The notes under the pieces: generated by a model
What the model saw: only the letters and a program-made list of their open reading frames with translations
What the model was told of the DNA's origin: nothing
Databases searched by the model: none
DNA from: a virus
Taxonomy: Duplodnaviria > Caudoviricetes
IMG/VR virus record: IMGVR_UViG_3300027743_000008
Span: 1-50,230 of that record
Length of the DNA: 50,230 bases
Reading direction: 5' to 3' (one strand)
Part shown: positions 3,592 through 11,452 of the stretch, piece after piece
Numbering within the stretch: the stretch's first letter is position 1
How the letters are laid out: every line of letters starts with the position of its first letter
Made by a program: the position numbers and the translations under genes

Positions 3592-3720
3592 CAACTCTAC
3601 AAACTGAACCCTACAGTAGCGGCTTGTGCGAGACTGTCGAGTTGGGAGGCCCCCTTTAGGGGGACCAACTCGACATCGCCGAAAGTTCAACTCTACACTA
3701 TGTAGAGTTCAACTCTACAC
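3592..3720. repeat. Iterated CAACTC(T/G)ACA motif in direct and inverted orientation; candidate replication origin
   Basis: Direct copies at 3592, 3666, 3688 and 3710; inverted copies at 3636 and 3701. Lies immediately downstream of the primase-helicase gene. Confidence 0.6.
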
Positions 3721-6081
3721 AACCTCGAAACCCCCTCCGATAACCACCATCGGGGCCTTCCTTCCGGTGTCTGTATCGACCACCTGTTCGACCGTTATGA
3801 CACCCATATTTGACATTTTTTCTATGATCTCGGCAGCCTTTTTAACCGATACGCCCAACACCCTATGCACGGATTTTGCTCCCGTGTTGTTGACGTTCGA
3901 GCCATAGACCCGCATCTGCTTCCCGGCTGCCGCAGCCTCTTCCAGAAGATCGCGCCACGCCCGCACCTGTGCCATGTCGTTGATCGACTGCGTCGGCACC
4001 AGAGGCACCAGTATCGGTGTCTCCTGCATCACCATCTTGGTCGGGTCGACCGCATCGTGAGATGCTATCTGCACCGTGATCTGTTCGTACCAGCAGGCGA
4101 CGTAGCGGGCCTTGTCGTCGTTTGCCTTGGCCACGTACTCGACGATGACCTGCCGCCCCATCCATCCGAACTCCTCGATCTCCTTGGCGGTCGCTGGCGT
4201 CAGCGTCAGCGCGCCCCGGACGGCCCCGGTGATGCCGGTTGATCCCCGGATCGAGATGATCGACCTGTCTCCTGCTGCCGCAGCTTCCTTGTTGACGTGG
4301 TGGACGAACGTCACCGACGCCCAGAACGTCTTGGCCAAGCGATCCAGAAACGCCATGACCGGAGAGATGTCCTGCGCCGCGTTCTCGTTGATGCCGGTCA
4401 CCGACGTCGCCATCGTGTCGACCACTATCATCGCGATGTCCCTGCCGGACCTGACATACTCCAGCACGGCTTCGAGGATTTCGAGACAGGAGACCTGCCA
4501 CGCCTTGCCGTCGAAGTTGAGCAGCGCCGACTTCAGCGGGATGATCTCATGCGCCGGGGTGGCGCTACCAAGCCCGTGATGGTCGAGCCACGCTTGGGCG
4601 CGACGCTTGATCAGCCCCTTCCCGTCCTCGTTGGAGATGTAGATTATGTCTCCCGCGAATTGCAGCTTGCCGTGGCCGTAGCGGATCAGGTCCGGTCGGT
4701 TGTAGGTGATCGCCAGCGCCTGATTGAGGATCAGCAGGGACTTGCCCAGTCCGGGCATTCCGGCCAGCACCGTAAGGATGCCGCGCTCGTAGGGTGTGAC
4801 GACGACCGGCGGCGCGACCGTGCCGGACTTCAGCGCCTCGCGCAGTGTCTGGACCTTGCCGCCATTGGTCCAGTTGGCGCTGTCTCCGTTCCTGTGGTGA
4901 TCCGGGATGGGTTGGGTCTTGGCGATCTCGGCGAGCAGCTCGTCGAGCTTCTTGCCAGCCGCCTTGGCCTCGGTGTCTCCCTTGCGCTCCGGCATCGGGA
5001 TTTGGTCTTCCTCGACTACCCCAAATGCTCCTCCATCCGCCGCGAATACCTGCGCGGCTTTCTGTCTCTCCGGGCTGTCCGGCCCGTGTATGCCCTCGAT
5101 CAAGCGCCGCAGCGTCGTCGCCGACGATGTCGTCCCGGAAAAGCTGTCCCATGTCTTCTCGGTGGATTTCCCGATGTCGTGCTTCTGCGACTGCCGCGAC
5201 CAGTCCTCGAACACAGCGTACCCGTCGGGTGAGCCTTCCGACGCCCCGTGGACGCCCATGCCAACGGCGATCCAGCGGTCATAGTCGTCGTCGTTGGGGA
5301 TCAGCTCGACCAGCTTCCTGATGGCGTCCGGGGGGAGCGTCTCCATGCCGGGGAGCCTTGGGATGCCCTTGTTCCACGACTGCCCAGCCGGGTCTTTGCC
5401 TCTAACCTCGGTGCATCCGGCCGCTTCCAGCACATCAGGTAACCTCGACCAGAACTCCGCGATAGCCGAGACAGGAACGCGCGGCAGCGTCGCCATCGTG
5501 ATCTGGCCATCGACGACGTACTTTCCGCCCTCGGCGTATTTTCCCCGGATCACCGTCTGCCGCCCGTCGCCGATGATCTGCACCTTCTGGGCATCGCCAC
5601 CCGCTGGAGGAACGAAACCGATATCGACGGAGCCGAGCGAGACAGGCTTCCCGGTGCCGTCGTCGATCACCACGCAGATCGCGGTCTTCTTGATGTGCGG
5701 CCTTCCGTCCGAACGCTTGACGCCGCGTTGCGGCAGGAACGGGCCGAACACGTCGCATTCCAGCGCGTCGACCAACTCCATCACGGCCGGGTCGGTGATG
5801 TCCTTGTCGATGCCGAGGAAGCCGCCGACGCCGCCGCGCAGCCCGACGCCGCAGCCGCCGACGTCCCACGCCTTGGCTTCTTCGAGAGTGGCGGGAGGGC
5901 GCTGCGACCAGCCGAACATCGGATCGCCGGGAGCGCCGGGTTTCTTGCCGCCCGGAACGATTGGGATCATCTGCGCCGCGAAACCGGCGTTGAACGCCTG
6001 TTCGTTCAAACCCAGATTGGTGCGCAGCGGAACGGTGTTGGCCACTTGCGGTGGCGAGTCAGGTGTTCTATCTCTGGACAC
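3715..6081 (-). CDS. Primase-helicase (bifunctional PrimPol N-domain, PriCT-2, AAA_25/RepA-type helicase)
   Basis: IPIVPGGKKP and GIDKD PrimPol motifs; YDRWIAVGMG...FEDWS PriCT-2; GMPGLGKS, IVVDT, VHHVNK and RGSTG helicase motifs. Start moved to the GTG at 6081 after AAAGGA. Confidence 0.88.
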   Translation of the reverse strand: MSRDRTPDSPPQVANTVPLRTNLGLNEQAFNAGFAAQMIPIVPGGKKPGAPGDPMFGWSQRPPATLEEAKAWDVGGCGVGLRGGVGGFLGIDKDITDPAVMELVDALECDVFGPFLPQRGVKRSDGRPHIKKTAICVVIDDGTGKPVSLGSVDIGFVPPAGGDAQKVQIIGDGRQTVIRGKYAEGGKYVVDGQITMATLPRVPVSAIAEFWSRLPDVLEAAGCTEVRGKDPAGQSWNKGIPRLPGMETLPPDAIRKLVELIPNDDDYDRWIAVGMGVHGASEGSPDGYAVFEDWSRQSQKHDIGKSTEKTWDSFSGTTSSATTLRRLIEGIHGPDSPERQKAAQVFAADGGAFGVVEEDQIPMPERKGDTEAKAAGKKLDELLAEIAKTQPIPDHHRNGDSANWTNGGKVQTLREALKSGTVAPPVVVTPYERGILTVLAGMPGLGKSLLILNQALAITYNRPDLIRYGHGKLQFAGDIIYISNEDGKGLIKRRAQAWLDHHGLGSATPAHEIIPLKSALLNFDGKAWQVSCLEILEAVLEYVRSGRDIAMIVVDTMATSVTGINENAAQDISPVMAFLDRLAKTFWASVTFVHHVNKEAAAAGDRSIISIRGSTGITGAVRGALTLTPATAKEIEEFGWMGRQVIVEYVAKANDDKARYVACWYEQITVQIASHDAVDPTKMVMQETPILVPLVPTQSINDMAQVRAWRDLLEEAAAAGKQMRVYGSNVNNTGAKSVHRVLGVSVKKAAEIIEKMSNMGVITVEQVVDTDTGRKAPMVVIGGGFEVV

Positions 6082-6316
6082 AGGTGAAGTTCCTTTCGTG
6101 GGAGTTAAACCTTGGCAGTGTCGTCTTTGGCTAGAAGGCATTGTTAGCACGGGTTTCGTGAGCCGGTTAGGTTTTTTGAGTTCTCTCCCCTGACCGGATG
6201 CCGCGATGCCCCAGAGGCGGGACCATCTGCTTTGGTCGGCGGACCCCACCTCGCCCCTTTTCATGACGGCTCGCGATGCCCCCGCTCGCGAGCCGTTTTG
6301 CTTTCCGGGTCAGAGC

Positions 6317-9124
6317 TTAAAGCTTCCCATACCGTTCCGTCAGGATGCCGCCCTCGCTCGCGATGGGGAGACCGCTGGCCCATGCCGGTGGCGTCTCGAT
6401 GATCCGCTTCGCGTAGTCCGGATAGAAGCCGGGCGCGACCTCGAAGAGTAATTCGTCGTGGACCGACAGCACCAGCTCGGCGGCGAGGTCGGCGGAGACA
6501 CGCAGCGCGGCTTCGACGATGACGTCGCGAGCCACCGCTTGCGTCACGTTTTCCGCCAGCTTGGACCCCCACGTGCGGATCGGCTGCCACTGCTTGGTGT
6601 ACTGGTCGACGCCGTCGAACACGATGGCGGTATGATTAGGCTGGACCGGATCGACGACGAGGCGTGGGTTGCGATACCAAAGCTTTCTACCGGACGGCAG
6701 CTTGATCATGAGACAGGGATATCCGAAGCTATTGGCCACCACCATAACGATGCCGCGCGCATGGGTGGGGATGAACGGGTGCGTGATCGCCTGCTTCGCC
6801 GCCGCGTCCAAGTCCCACCAGAACTGTCTCGTATGGGCATTGGCGTCGCGCCATGCGGTGACGATTTCGAGGCTCTCCATCTTGGTGAGCCGAAGCCCGT
6901 TGGCCAACGCGAAGTCGACGAACGCTTCGTGGCCCATGCCGAAGCCCAGACCGAGGACCGCGACCTTGCCTGCCTTGCGTGAGCCAAGCCCCAGCCTGTC
7001 CGACGTGTGGGTGTAGACGTCCTCGCCCTTGCGGAAGACGTCAAGCACGTCGTTCTGGCCCGCCAGCCAAGCGAGAACCCTAGCTTCGATCTGCGAAAGA
7101 TCAAACACGAGGAACTGCTTCCCGTCCGAAGGGATGAGGCAACCGCGGAGACAGGCGGAGACAACAGCTAGGGGTTCGCCATAGAAGACCCCGAGGCCGT
7201 CGTTGCGCAGCCCCCCGAGGATCGCGTTGATCGCGTCGAGCGGGTTCCAGCCTTTTGGCGGGCGCGGGAAGTTCTGCGGCTGGATCAAACGACCTGAATT
7301 ATGGTGGATCAGTCCTTGGGCGACATAGCTTGCATCTCCTTCAACAGAGATGTCCCAAACTCCTCTTTCTCCCACAGGTGCAAGCGACCAAGCTTCTGCT
7401 TGTGCAGCGCCTGATGCCCTTTCGGCGTCACCAGAGCCAGATTGTCCAAGGTGTCGTTCGTCTTGTCTCCGTCGATATGGTGGACGTGCCAGCCCTCCGG
7501 CAGCTCCTTCAGTCCCAGCGCCGTCGCCATCGCGCTCCGGTGTTCGAAGGTGTAGCCATCGCCGTTCCACGTCGCCATTCGACCACTGTGCAAAACCCGT
7601 TTCACCGCGCTCTGTATGCCATAGTTGGGGTTCTTCGCCCCTACTCGGCTGCGAGAGTATGCCGCGCTCTTCAGGCGCTTGTATTCCGCCGGAGACAGCC
7701 GGGCTTTCAGCACCGCCCCCACGTTGTGCAGCGTCGTTCCCAACTTCGCCGCGACTTCCTCCATCGTGATGACCTGCGACCGATAGAGGCGTTCGACCTC
7801 CTCGCAGAACGAAGCGTCCGCCAGCATCTTCCTCGAAACACTCATCGATCCGTCTCCACCCCGTTTCCGTCATGATCCGGTGCGCCAGCGTCGCCTCGAC
7901 GAAAGCACCATCCGGCCCTTCGAGACGGTACATGGTCTCGATGCCTTTGTAAAATTTTGCCAGAACTTTCCGGGGTTGGCCACTGCCGCCGATGACGATG
8001 TCGCCGGGACGCAGCCCGATGATCCGTCGTGGCCCTTCCGGCGTGTCGACCAGCGTTCCGCCCGCAACGCAGAAGCGTCCCGTCCTCGCAGCGCCATAGT
8101 ATTGAAGCGTGCCGCGCACCCGGCCGTCGTTGTCGACCGTGTTCAGCATCGACTGGAGTTTCTTCACCGAGGACTTGGCGACCTTTTGTCTGATCGCCAG
8201 CACCTTGGTGCCGAGGGGAGACAGCCCGGCTTCAGGAGCCGTGTCCAGCGTGTCCTGGACCTCGTCCTTGCCGACGGTGGCCATCTTGACGCCTTGGCCC
8301 CATAACCAGCTCAGGAGACGTTGGGTCTGGGTGCCGGGAGACGTGACGTTGCCCCCGGTCAGGGCTTTGCACTCCGCGTCGAGCTTTTGGGTTTCTTCCT
8401 TGGCGATGCCGATCAGCGTGTGGATCAGGGGGATGTCGAGCCTGATGCCCTTGTCGTTGGCGATCCGGTCGAGGCGAGACACGGCTTTCTCGTAATCGGG
8501 CAGCTCCGGCGTAAGCTTGCACACGGCGCGCTCGGCGATTACGTCCTGCTTACAGTAAGCTTCGAGCGCAGACAGTTTTCCCAGATCGACGTCGTGCCAG
8601 AACGTGCCGTCCTGTTTTGGCCTGCACATCTGCATCATCAGGCGATGCCCGGCGACGTCCTTCAGGAGAGACGGAGCCAAACCGAGGGCTGGCCCGGCGT
8701 GTTCCAGCTTGGCCGGAAGCCCGGAGTACAGCGCCCGCTGCATGGAGCAGATCGCTTGGCGCGGGTCCATCTGCTTCACGCCGAACCAGTTGGTGATGAA
8801 GGCCCACTCGAAAGCCGCGTTCCACGCCACGAACTTCCCGTCCGAGGCGAGGTGCTGCGAGACATCGTGCGGCAGGCTTTTCGGCATCGTCACCGAGGAG
8901 ACGGGGCCGTCGTCGAACGCCCACGCGATGACCGTCACGATGGTATCCGGGTGCCGGGAGTAGGCGCTCGCGCCGACCTTGCGCAAATCTAGGGTAGAGG
9001 CTGTCTCCAGATCGAGGTGCAGCAGTCGGCGTTCCGGGAACACCTTTCCGGCAACCGAGGCCCGCGCATCCAAGTCCCCGATCCTTTTGATGATGGCCAT
9101 CAGGTCGTCGATGCCCACGCTCAT
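6317..9124 (-). CDS. polA: Family A DNA polymerase (APSE-like) interrupted by an intein
   Basis: Exonuclease motifs LDLET, AWNAAFE and YCKQDV; TGRF|SGRLIQPQN; motif A DLSQIEARVLAW; motif B RKAGKVAVLGLGFG; motif C VHDEL. The ATG at 9124 overlaps the upstream stop (ATGA). Confidence 0.95.
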   Translation of the reverse strand: MSVGIDDLMAIIKRIGDLDARASVAGKVFPERRLLHLDLETASTLDLRKVGASAYSRHPDTIVTVIAWAFDDGPVSSVTMPKSLPHDVSQHLASDGKFVAWNAAFEWAFITNWFGVKQMDPRQAICSMQRALYSGLPAKLEHAGPALGLAPSLLKDVAGHRLMMQMCRPKQDGTFWHDVDLGKLSALEAYCKQDVIAERAVCKLTPELPDYEKAVSRLDRIANDKGIRLDIPLIHTLIGIAKEETQKLDAECKALTGGNVTSPGTQTQRLLSWLWGQGVKMATVGKDEVQDTLDTAPEAGLSPLGTKVLAIRQKVAKSSVKKLQSMLNTVDNDGRVRGTLQYYGAARTGRFCVAGGTLVDTPEGPRRIIGLRPGDIVIGGSGQPRKVLAKFYKGIETMYRLEGPDGAFVEATLAHRIMTETGWRRIDECFEEDAGGRFVLRGGRTPLSVAGHHDGGSRGEVGNDAAQRGGGAESPAVSGGIQAPEERGILSQPSRGEEPQLWHTERGETGFAQWSNGDVERRWLHLRTPERDGDGAGTEGAAGGLARPPYRRRQDERHLGQSGSGDAERASGAAQAEAWSLAPVGERGVWDISVEGDASYVAQGLIHHNSGRLIQPQNFPRPPKGWNPLDAINAILGGLRNDGLGVFYGEPLAVVSACLRGCLIPSDGKQFLVFDLSQIEARVLAWLAGQNDVLDVFRKGEDVYTHTSDRLGLGSRKAGKVAVLGLGFGMGHEAFVDFALANGLRLTKMESLEIVTAWRDANAHTRQFWWDLDAAAKQAITHPFIPTHARGIVMVVANSFGYPCLMIKLPSGRKLWYRNPRLVVDPVQPNHTAIVFDGVDQYTKQWQPIRTWGSKLAENVTQAVARDVIVEAALRVSADLAAELVLSVHDELLFEVAPGFYPDYAKRIIETPPAWASGLPIASEGGILTERYGKL
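7298..8071 (-). mobile_element. Intein (258 aa) in the DNA polymerase
   Basis: Block A CVAGGTLVDT, block B ATLAHRIMTETGW, block F VWDISVEG, block G IHHN followed by Ser. Removing it restores TGRFSGRLIQPQN. Confidence 0.95.
7309..7845 (-). CDS. HNH homing endonuclease encoded in the +1 frame inside the intein
   Basis: N-terminal HTH-like segment, NUMOD3-like GAKNPNYG, and EHR...LG..LP.GWHVHHIDGDKTNDTLDNL...H...H. GGAG lies 8 nt upstream of the ATG. Confidence 0.9.
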   Translation of the reverse strand: MSVSRKMLADASFCEEVERLYRSQVITMEEVAAKLGTTLHNVGAVLKARLSPAEYKRLKSAAYSRSRVGAKNPNYGIQSAVKRVLHSGRMATWNGDGYTFEHRSAMATALGLKELPEGWHVHHIDGDKTNDTLDNLALVTPKGHQALHKQKLGRLHLWEKEEFGTSLLKEMQAMSPKD

Positions 9125-10047
9125 GGCTTCACCCGCGTGAACAGCCGGTGCAGCTCTTCGTGGTCGCGCCAGTTGACCTTGGTCGAGCGCACCGGGATGA
9201 CTTTTCCCGAGGCGAGGTGCCGTTGGTGGGAGCGCCGCCAATGGGGGACCGGGGAAGCGTGATGGCCTGTTTGGCCGGGATTTCGCTTGATCGAAGCCAC
9301 GGCGTGCTGGAACAGGGAGACATAGTCGCGTGTCTCCACCCGCGTATGCGCCGGGATCGGAGATTTCCCCTTGAGCGCCCGTTGCTTGTTGAGTTTTTCC
9401 GGGGCCGGGACGTCGACGACCGGCACAGAGGCGTCAGCCAAGAGACGCAGCATCGTCACCAGCGGATCGAGCATGTTGGCCCCGCGCTTTCCGGCTTCGG
9501 GCTGCCGGTTGAAGACGGCGTCGATCATCGGGACCGGGTTTATCACGGTCACGCCGTCTTCCACGCTGATCGCGCAGATGTCGTTGACCACCACCGCCAG
9601 CGGCATGTCGGGCGAGGCGACGCCGTAGATTTCGATGACGATGGACGCCTTGCCCCCCGAGAACGGCGAGACGAAATAGCCGCACATGCCGCCCTCCCAC
9701 GACGAGACGCCGATCCACTCCTCGTATGGGTGCTGGAGTTCGCCTGCTTCGAACGCGTCGCGTGTCCGGGTGCTTGTCTCCTTCAGCAGGTTGTTGGGCA
9801 GGAAGCCGAAGTCGATCATCCGGCCCTCGCGGATGGTCTCCTGAACCGTCTCGATCATCGTGTTGACGAGGTTCGCGCTGGTGCTGGGGATGTCGAGCAT
9901 CGGGCTGAACGCGAACAGGCCGTCGAGCGCGGCGTTGCGAAAGCTTGCTGCGCTGCGGATCGGGTGCTTGTCGAAATCCTCCATGATTTTGATCATGGTG
10001 GCTCTAGCCAGTTTCGGGGGCAGGCTGCCGGGGACGTCGACGCTCAT
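9121..10047 (-). CDS. Hypothetical phage protein with a C-terminal HASP.PHWRRSH.R basic motif
   Basis: 308 aa ORF, strong SD (AAAGGAG), stop coupled to the polymerase start. Confidence 0.8.
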   Translation of the reverse strand: MSVDVPGSLPPKLARATMIKIMEDFDKHPIRSAASFRNAALDGLFAFSPMLDIPSTSANLVNTMIETVQETIREGRMIDFGFLPNNLLKETSTRTRDAFEAGELQHPYEEWIGVSSWEGGMCGYFVSPFSGGKASIVIEIYGVASPDMPLAVVVNDICAISVEDGVTVINPVPMIDAVFNRQPEAGKRGANMLDPLVTMLRLLADASVPVVDVPAPEKLNKQRALKGKSPIPAHTRVETRDYVSLFQHAVASIKRNPGQTGHHASPVPHWRRSHQRHLASGKVIPVRSTKVNWRDHEELHRLFTRVKP

Positions 10048-10929: not shown

Positions 10930-10988
10930 TCTGGCTTATCGTTTTCGCGGCGAACTTCCTGCTCGTCACCCTGTTGGTCAACCGATGA
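10926..10988 (+). CDS. 20-aa hydrophobic peptide MIWLIVFAANFLLVTLLVNR
   Basis: ATGA overlaps with both neighbours. Confidence 0.5.
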   Translation: MIWLIVFAANFLLVTLLVNR

Positions 10989-11452
10989 TCCTGCGGAAAA
11001 TCCTTGCGATAGACCCCGGCTCCGTCAGCGCGGCTTACGCCATCGTGGAGGAGACGACGTTCCGGATCATCGACGTCGACGACGTGCCGGTGGTCGACAG
11101 GATGGTCGACGCCGCCGGGTGGTCGCAGATCGTCGAGTTCTGGTCTCCTGACCGGGCTGTCATCGAATTGGTTGGTTCCATGCCGAAGCAGGGGGTGAGT
11201 TCCTCGTTCCGGTTCGGAATGGGTTGCGGGCTTTTGCGGGGTGTCGTCATCGCGTGCGGTGTTCCTGTCGAACAGGTGTCTCCGTCCAAGTGGAAGCGGG
11301 ACATGGGGCTGGACAGCGACGGCGAAAAGTCACGCGCGCTGGCCCTGCGGCAATGGCCGGAATGTCTCCGGCTGGGGCGGGTGAAGGATCACGGAAGAGC
11401 CGAGGCGCTGCTGCTGGCGCGTTGGTTTCTGGAAAAGACCAGCAGGCAGTGA
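10985..11452 (+). CDS. RuvC-like Holliday junction resolvase
   Basis: LAIDPG, VIELVGSMPKQGVSSSFRFG, PSKWK and DHGRAEALLLA motifs. Confidence 0.88.
   Translation: MILRKILAIDPGSVSAAYAIVEETTFRIIDVDDVPVVDRMVDAAGWSQIVEFWSPDRAVIELVGSMPKQGVSSSFRFGMGCGLLRGVVIACGVPVEQVSPSKWKRDMGLDSDGEKSRALALRQWPECLRLGRVKDHGRAEALLLARWFLEKTSRQ

Follow-up and report, generated by a model that had tools for sequence, protein, structure and literature searches.

An intein in a soil-phage family-A DNA polymerase gene that is probably read in two frames, with an HNH endonuclease gene in the +1 frame

Textbook inteins carry a homing endonuclease as an in-frame domain. The locus described here raises the question of how an intein is to be understood when its own frame contains no recognisable nuclease and the +1 frame of the same DNA does. 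It lies in the polymerase gene of the virus record IMGVR_UViG_3300027743_000008 (Duplodnaviria; Caudoviricetes), a complete 50,230-bp soil phage record with terminal repeats; this whole stretch is called the window below. We conclude that the gene most probably contains a mobile class-1 intein read in two frames, with a splicing domain in the polymerase frame and a free HNH homing nuclease in the +1 frame. The original prediction, which was made from the sequence alone, had located the intein, the HNH open reading frame (ORF), its Shine-Dalgarno (SD) motif and its stop codon, and all of these coordinates were correct; its interpretation was likewise supported.

The intein (7298..8071; this and all other parts of the gene are on the minus strand) comprises 258 amino acids within a 974-aa ORF (6317..9241, from TTG). 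The ORF encodes a family-A DNA polymerase precursor that matched Pfam DNA_pol_A (2e-18) and phrog_17 (3e-94). Its true start is likely the ATG at 9124, which aligned with the start of the homologue P0044. The N-extein (8072..9241) ends with ...GAARTGRF and the C-extein (6317..7297) begins with SGRLIQPQNFP, the Ser+1 codon being at 7295-7297; the intein-less relatives P0043, P0045, P0046 and P0047 run TGRF straight into SGRL. The intein itself starts with CVAGG, contains TLAH as block B at residues 61-64 (T61..H64) and ends with VWDISVEGDASYVAQGLIHHN. The class-1 features Cys1, a Thr-x-x-His block B, a terminal His-Asn and Ser+1 were present in the window.

We modelled the window intein in the polymerase frame with AlphaFold2 using 28 aligned sequences. 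The model had a mini-intein fold, in which two confident halves were joined by a low-confidence linker of about 125 residues. In the N-terminal splicing half (residues 1-100 with blocks A and B, 7772..8071) the 10-residue block means of pLDDT (predicted score in the local distance difference test) were 77-98, and in the C-terminal half (residues 226-258 with blocks F and G, 7298..7396) they were 93-97 from residue 231. The linker (residues 101-225, 7397..7771) is rich in Gly, Arg and Glu, had pLDDT values below 50 and showed neither structure nor a family match; it is open but poorly conserved. A Foldseek search with the model returned 36 PDB matches at E<=0.001, with mini-inteins first, and the best match was the gp41-1 intein (6riz; E 3e-6, target-normalised template modelling score 0.80). 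No nuclease family was found in the polymerase-frame intein in Pfam, and no PHROG family (0) matched it.

The nuclease was found in the other frame. A 178-aa ORF (7309..7845) runs in the +1 frame from the ATG at 7845-7843 to the TGA at 7311-7309, which ends 11 nt ahead of the intein end, and the polymerase and +1 frames are both open over 537 nt. Its product matched Pfam HNH_3 (PF13392; 4.1e-10, 39.6 bits, cut-off 24.8) over residues 102-145 and, among the PHROGs, 13 HNH endonuclease families (best phrog_7545, 1.3e-18) and one family of unknown function. It is a homing-type endonuclease related to I-PfoP3I and I-HmuI, the latter being matched in a profile search against the PDB (1u3e, 7.1e-5). 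In the catalytic core (residues 122-148, HHIDGDKTN...N...H...H; 7402..7482), which overlaps the HNH_3 match, residues H122, H123, D125, N130, N135, H144 and H148 were invariant among 24 HNH sequences. The claim of an off-frame HNH nuclease was thus borne out by the profile searches of both frames, which placed a nuclease in the +1 frame only. Of the domain labels given to it, HNH held; NUMOD3-like and helix-turn-helix (HTH) found no support in Pfam, where NUMOD3 gave no match at E<=0.1 and only DUF7317 (E 0.03) appeared for the HTH, and the Foldseek matches to HTH proteins were weak.

The structural model of the HNH protein showed 10-residue pLDDT block means of 73-96 over residues 1-150, except for 53 at residues 71-80. 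Where a beta-beta-alpha-metal fold was looked for, strands at residues 120-123 and 136-139 and a helix at residues 141-149 were modelled with high pLDDT, and the structural matches, given below, were local only. The tail (residues 151-178 and the stop codon, 7309..7395), which lies over intein blocks F and G, was disordered, as residues 152-159 and 164-178 had pLDDT values under 50.

We collected homologous loci to evaluate this arrangement. An alignment-based search yielded 80 loci each from viral and metagenomic data. In 32 of the 35 longest-match loci the HNH ORF was nested in a far longer ORF with the frame offset seen in the window, and the third frame was closed throughout. An HNH ORF nested out of frame in a polymerase ORF was found at 40 of 165 fetched loci (not de-duplicated), none of the 40 having the HNH in frame with the polymerase (0/40), and at two loci on contigs of metagenome-assembled genomes (MAGs). 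Single-sequence searches yielded little: five weak loci with the HNH protein and one weak locus with the C-extein. A protein search identified an HNH family of about 178-aa members at 42-62% identity (P0002-P0015).

The comparative set consisted of the window and 28 loci with a complete HNH ORF, with guanine-cytosine (GC) contents of 0.38-0.61. An HNH ORF of about 180 codons was located at one frame offset inside a family-A polymerase ORF in 29/29 loci, with its stop codon 8-50 nt upstream of the intein end; the seven host ORFs scanned all matched DNA_pol_A. The insertion site was the polymerase motif TGR-x-(S) / S/C-x-x-P-N-x-Q-N in every locus, and residue +1 was Ser at 21 loci and Cys at the remaining 8. 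All 28 complete inteins were 254-284 aa long, with Cys first and His-Asn last. Across these 28, C1, H64, D240, H257 and N258 were invariant and T61 was nearly so.

The same nested HNH and polymerase intein was also observed in L171, a contig binned with a Hyphomicrobiales MAG, and in L173, binned with a Rubritepida MAG. This alphaproteobacterial binning is a hint of the host range, or a binning artefact. The genome-contig search gave only three full-length relatives, all of them in MAGs, and hence no cultured host is known.

Selection was evident on both frames. We permuted the synonymous codons of the HNH ORF in 2000 shuffles, keeping the protein and the codon usage. In the window, the shuffled sequences had on average 3.9 stops in the polymerase frame, and a fraction of 0.008 was free of stops. 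Over the 29 loci, the polymerase frame contained no stop across the HNH ORF (0 stops in 29/29), compared with 3.3-11.6 expected, and the fraction of open shuffles was 0-0.0185 per locus. The third frame, used as the control, contained 3-23 stops, matching expectation.

The substitution pattern identified the frame that is conserved. In the window's clade, differences per site over HNH residues 1-150 were 0.39, 0.35 and 0.60 at codon positions 1, 2 and 3, and the HNH frame was 52% identical at the amino acid level, compared with 26% for the polymerase frame (43% and 21% over all 29 loci). The comparison of frames in the middle segment, which the original prediction had proposed, therefore favoured the HNH frame. 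Conversely, in the tail over blocks F and G, the differences were 0.18-0.25 per site at all three positions and both frames were 66-71% identical in the same clade. The simplest explanation for the conservation of the nuclease tail is a shadow cast by the intein splicing blocks, as the tail is disordered in the model while both frames are constrained. Likewise, the conserved 'PHRR..EQ..RQ' of the polymerase-frame linker is a shadow of the HNH motif. Co-divergence of the HNH protein with the non-overlapping N-terminal domain of the intein was moderate (Spearman 0.44, for pairs that are not independent). Since each frame is open beyond chance and has its own constraint, the intein and the HNH gene form an overprinted pair.

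The intein looks recently mobile. The four intein-less relatives, which are 646-680 aa long and among the closest by C-extein identity, have an exact empty site (...RTGRF-SGRLIQPQNFP...). They showed 63-77% identity, and their C-exteins were 81% (P0043), 78% (P0045), 68% (P0046) and 65% (P0047) identical to that of the window. P0044 (935 aa) has an intein that was identical, by eye, over 258 residues, and its C-extein was just 83% identical. Among the best 120 polymerase relatives listed, four were at least 900 aa long. In metagenome contigs, all 21 listed differing positions were located in the exteins (7250-7268 and 8090-8159), 19 of them at third codon positions, and none was in the intein; synonymous divergence set in within about 20-30 nt of the intein ends. 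One contig of run X6 joined 7291 to 8088 through 22 other letters, a net loss of 774 nt, which is exactly the intein, and the bridging letters translate by eye as A-R-T-G-R-F/S-G. Intein-plus and empty alleles thus occur side by side in one metagenome. The same intein in diverged alleles, together with the coexisting empty alleles, points to recent mobility, and the intein is apparently spreading now.

These results are consistent with the following mechanism. In the polymerase frame, the two halves of the mini-intein and the unstructured linker would be translated as one insert, and protein splicing at TGRF/C...HHN/S would remove it and restore the conserved polymerase motif. Ribosomes would also start at the internal ATG just past intein block B, which has its own SD-like motif, to produce a free HNH endonuclease of about 20 kDa. 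During co-infection, the endonuclease would nick or cut polymerase alleles that lack the intein, at the TGRF/SGRL coding site or close to it, as its homology to I-PfoP3I suggests, and recombinational repair would copy the intein and the nuclease gene into the empty allele (homing).

Alternatively, an expressed nuclease might not be, or might have ceased to be, the homing enzyme of the intein and might serve the phage otherwise, for instance through attack on the polymerase genes of competing phages (exclusion). The architecture has persisted across deep divergence, longer than a simple cycle of invasion and decay by homing predicts: the HNH protein of the window was 33-48% identical to those of the full-length nested viral loci, duplicates excluded, and the range was 25-49% when every listed nested locus was counted. 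I-HmuI and I-HmuII, moreover, cut both intron-plus and intron-minus alleles according to the published account (PMC3428280). However, the patchy distribution, the exact empty sites, the identical intein in diverged exteins and the coexisting alleles are what active homing predicts, and we consider the exclusion explanation unlikely.

A silent +1 ORF would be a different matter. It could be the relic of an in-frame HNH intein that suffered two frameshifts, leaving a mini-intein with a junk linker and a nuclease that is not made. In-frame HNH_3 inteins do exist, although the example found (L075, described below) is in another gene, and long open off-frames are frequent in the ORF list of the window, which is GC-rich. 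Nevertheless, a relic would gain stops and lose its start, whereas 29/29 loci at 25-60% identity keep the full-length ORF and a start codon, the catalytic residues are invariant and the third-position pattern of a coding frame is kept. None of the 40 nested polymerase loci showed the in-frame ancestor that this explanation calls for. Openness driven by GC content was rejected, because the arrangement is kept at a GC of 0.38-0.46 and the shuffles fail to give it. We therefore regard a relic as very unlikely, and return to a nuclease gene that would be translated in addition to the intein.

We evaluated how the nuclease would be made. In the window, an SD-like GGAG (7854..7857) is located 8 nt before the HNH ATG and is supplied by the intein-frame Trp-Arg codons TGG-AGA. 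The aligned first codon was ATG in 25, GTG in 2 and TTG in 2 of the 29 loci; for two loci the start was taken as the nearest start codon, so that the alignment is approximate there. An SD-like 4-mer was present at -17..-4 in 25/29 loci, compared with 15.8% at 4451 other start-type triplets of the same regions.

Several results weigh against the two-frame reading. The SD-like enrichment may partly mirror conserved intein-frame Gly-Trp or Glu-Glu-Leu codons, and its significance is overstated because the 29 loci are kin. In the polymerase frame, Pfam Hint_2 (E 1.2e-4, 23.0 bits, cut-off 28.4) and Intein_splicing (E 0.0067, 16.7 bits, cut-off 35.8) both stayed under their cut-offs. Foldseek with the whole HNH model returned nothing at E<=0.001; its top matches were local only, to a Cas8-HNH chain (51 columns, root mean square deviation 2.6, E 0.13, probability 0.99) and to I-HmuI (probability 0.87). 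No RNA run holding the stretch was found, and a scan of 7000-9500 for sigma-70-like promoters, the only promoter type scanned for, gave none. As no internal promoter was found, translation would start internally on the polymerase mRNA, and we infer internal initiation as the route by which the nuclease would be made.

Programmed +1 ribosomal frameshifting would instead produce a fusion of the N-extein, the N-terminal half of the intein and the HNH domain. Both frames would be on one mRNA with no internal promoter-like site, which suits frameshifting but is not specific to it. A TGA in the +1 frame at 7872-7870, eight codons ahead of the HNH ATG, leaves a window of only 24 nt for the shift, no conserved slippery site was seen by eye in the aligned upstream sequences, and the retention of ATG, GTG or TTG in all 29 loci together with the SD-like motif in most of them fits initiation. 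Frameshifting is accordingly highly improbable. An artefact of two compensating indels in what is a metagenome assembly, which the original prediction had named as a refutation, is excluded, since contigs of four runs from four other studies showed 0 indels over 7200-8200 (one contig of 907 nt covers the entire intein with 4 differences), a 99%-identical ORF (P0001) lies on a different contig, and 28 other loci have the same frame relation.

To place the overprinted nuclease among its relatives, we compared it with phage and metagenomic HNH genes. All 60 matching records in the cultured-phage collection were below 60% identity to the +1 protein. The best phage match was the Pf-WMP3 endonuclease (34.6% identity over residues 1-151, E 1e-13). 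This enzyme, I-PfoP3I, is a nicking HNH endonuclease in a group I intron of the Pf-WMP3 polymerase gene and was shown to nick that polymerase site (PMC3428280). Exon 1 of Pf-WMP3 ends with ...TRLSSSKP. Related HNH genes are present in annotated polymerase introns of PS3 and PhAPEC7, whose exon-1 frames read ...TGRLSSSNPNL and ...SGRLSASEP..., respectively. In five metagenomic relatives that appeared to stand alone, the upstream polymerase ORF loses similarity directly after TGR-x-S-S/C-x-x-P. In Pf-WMP3, PS3, PhAPEC7 and these five loci, the HNH gene follows TGRLSS..P in an intron of the polymerase gene. Rfam detected group I introns at gathering score in two of ten such stand-alone loci scanned, and it missed the proven Pf-WMP3 intron at that score.

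An RNA intron in the window itself was considered and rejected: the frame is uninterrupted, and Rfam at E<=1 over 7000-8400 gave one chance-level small nucleolar RNA match, from a database that at its gathering score missed the Pf-WMP3 intron too.

We built a quick maximum-likelihood tree from 56 HNH proteins. It contained a clade with 97% support that comprised 35 intein-nested genes, three intron-borne genes, seven stand-alone genes clustering with the intron-borne ones, and two remnants. Nine other stand-alone HNH genes fell outside it. The 35 nested rows and the two remnants were on one side of a branch with a support of 68; with support only at this level, the tree neither demonstrates nor rules out that the nested form arose once. 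In the sequences compared, the nuclease lineage is tied to one polymerase motif, where its vehicle is either an RNA intron or an intein, inserted a few codons apart. Because one lineage uses both vehicles at one motif, invasion of a mini-intein by an HNH gene is favoured over an old double frameshift, and such an origin is plausible.

It further seems possible, though a little short of probable, that a single HNH lineage, specialised for the TGR-L-S-S-x-x-P-N-L-Q-N coding site in family-A polymerases, has switched between a group I intron and an intein located 4-6 codons apart. The overprinted form would then be no passing accident but old and stable, a mobile element of two genes that is compatible with one origin and has since become diverse among the polymerases of many phages. 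If this is true, the vehicle-switching lineage would be a living example of the route to mobile inteins in which the splicing element comes first and the endonuclease gene invades later.

The two remnants were L091 (3242-4549) and L031 (1800-2785), in which an un-nested HNH ORF adjoins a polymerase fragment that ends with ...TGRSSSR in L091 and, on the opposite strand, with ...TGRTASA in L031. Their nearest relatives are nested and their context looks cellular; they are probably decayed prophage copies. A 7.7-kb viral locus, L048, contains three Rfam group I introns (443-673, 3973-4209 and 5396-5659; 88-92 bits), one of which directly follows an HNH gene that belongs to the intron-borne clade.

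More distantly related HNH_3 genes, whose C-terminal region is Cys-rich, were found in a different arrangement. In L003/L004/L087/L116 (one contig), L005, L006/L007, L062, L069, L078, L104 and L110, they lie within ORFs of 800-1666 codons, in the alternate frame that is not used in the window (host at offset 1). Together with L059, the loci nested at offset 1 numbered 13. The host frame at offset 1 has intein-like ends (C[FV]..GT... and ...VYNLTV...HN/C) with a featureless middle, and the host genes look, by eye, like large terminases. These loci may represent a second, independent family of overprinted HNH-in-intein elements. In L059 (250-684), an ORF that looks, by eye, like a DNA methylase gene and has no intein blocks contains an HNH_3 ORF in another frame, similar to the ShiLan domain discussed below. 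L075 (3182-5317) contains a canonical in-frame HNH_3 intein (CLHGDT... to ...FVHN/S) in another phage gene. With this in-frame case added, HNH_3 occurs in inteins in frame, at +1 and at +2.

Further inteins were observed in polymerase genes. The 2149-codon polymerase ORF of L020 (691-7137), which also has uracil-DNA glycosylase and 3'-5' exonuclease domains, contains an in-frame LAGLIDADG_2 match (residues 516-673) besides the overprinted HNH intein, which suggests several inteins, differing in kind, within one polymerase gene. Two relatives of the window polymerase, P0143 and P0108, which are among the four of at least 900 aa, have different inteins with a long featureless middle at other polymerase sites, with the junctions AGKV/C...HN/C and ...CEN/C...HN/C. 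Each of these inteins may likewise conceal an endonuclease gene, out of frame or antisense.

In the window, the polymerase gene belongs to a replication module on the minus strand, in which it is listed after a primase/helicase gene (3715-6264; phrog_906, 7e-27). On its other side are a 308-aa ORF without a PHROG match (9121-10047, minus strand) and a RuvC-like Holliday junction resolvase gene (10985-11452, plus strand; phrog_1770, 8e-28).

The locus represents a splicing element and a nuclease as two genes that share one DNA stretch, with comparative data showing selection on both. Dozens of divergent loci, with intron-borne sister genes at the same target, constitute a natural test set for the acquisition of endonucleases by inteins. 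Gene callers and intein surveys that translate the host frame alone miss such nucleases and file the inteins as 'mini' or 'degenerate'. The nucleases are also candidates for small site-specific nickases aimed at a conserved polymerase motif. As the intein appears to spread now, homing is directly testable given a host or a surrogate.

In our literature search, no family-A polymerase intein with an out-of-frame (+1) HNH_3 nuclease was described, although supplementary tables of related papers could list one, and neither the breadth of this family nor its relationship to the intron-borne nickases of that site was found. The principle of an out-of-frame endonuclease in an intein is already in print. 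The architecture proposed in the original prediction therefore stands for the window but is less unprecedented than was implied, since two preprints from one laboratory report such inteins (bioRxiv 10.1101/2025.01.02.630785 and 10.64898/2026.09.14.751524).

The first (bioRxiv 10.1101/2025.01.02.630785) describes contiguous inteins with the endonuclease on the same strand in another frame. As in the present intein, the splicing domain is in the extein frame and the polymerase-frame middle lacks recognisable structure, and its authors propose an origin by invasion of a free-standing endonuclease gene. The two systems differ in the nuclease, which is endonuclease VII-like and in 'frame 3' there but HNH_3/I-PfoP3I-like and in the +1 frame here. 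They also differ in their hosts: terminase, minor capsid, thymidylate synthase and 'DNA polymerase', of which the text available names only Pol III alpha, as opposed to a family-A polymerase. The arrangement is termed rare in that text, whereas we found it at 40 or more of the 165 fetched loci. The second preprint (Phillips, DeSimone & Gogarten, bioRxiv 10.64898/2026.09.14.751524), which cites Gorbalenya 1998, reports a LAGLIDADG endonuclease in the +2 frame of a cyanobacterial dnaX intein. Frame-dependent selection, coexisting intein-plus and intein-free alleles and a proposed secondary invasion of a mini-intein are common to both cases; unlike the present case, the dnaX intein involves a cellular gene, a LAGLIDADG nuclease and the other frame.

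The ShiLan domain, an out-of-frame HNH insertion in a phage DNA methylase, resembles the present locus in that an HNH gene occupies the alternate frame of an insertion kept open in the host frame, as described by Arsenault et al. 2025 (PMC11855218). In their account no splicing domain was detected, the insert presumably stays in the protein and no ribosome-binding site is detectable, whereas the flanks here make up a complete intein and the SD-like motif is conserved.

The genes of I-PfoP3I, PS3 and PhAPEC7 share with the overprinted one a homologous nuclease of about 160-180 aa with a C-terminal HNH, in the same gene and at the same motif. I-PfoP3I is carried by a self-splicing RNA intron, which is inserted a few codons further downstream, and the nuclease ORF lies in the intron RNA and overlaps no other coding frame; the vehicle here is an intein with an overprinted ORF. 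In fractured genes, which Dassa et al. reportedly described in 2009 and the 2025 preprint discusses, split inteins are said to have a free-standing endonuclease gene between their halves. There too, one locus combines separate genes for splicing and for the endonuclease. The host gene is, however, split into two ORFs with splicing in trans, whereas a single host frame (974 aa in the window) is open in 29/29 loci here and splicing in cis is predicted. Finally, the nuclease of canonical in-frame HNH inteins, for which the 2025 preprint cites Dalgaard et al. 1997, is a domain of the same polypeptide, whereas in the present intein it is encoded by a separate, overprinted gene.

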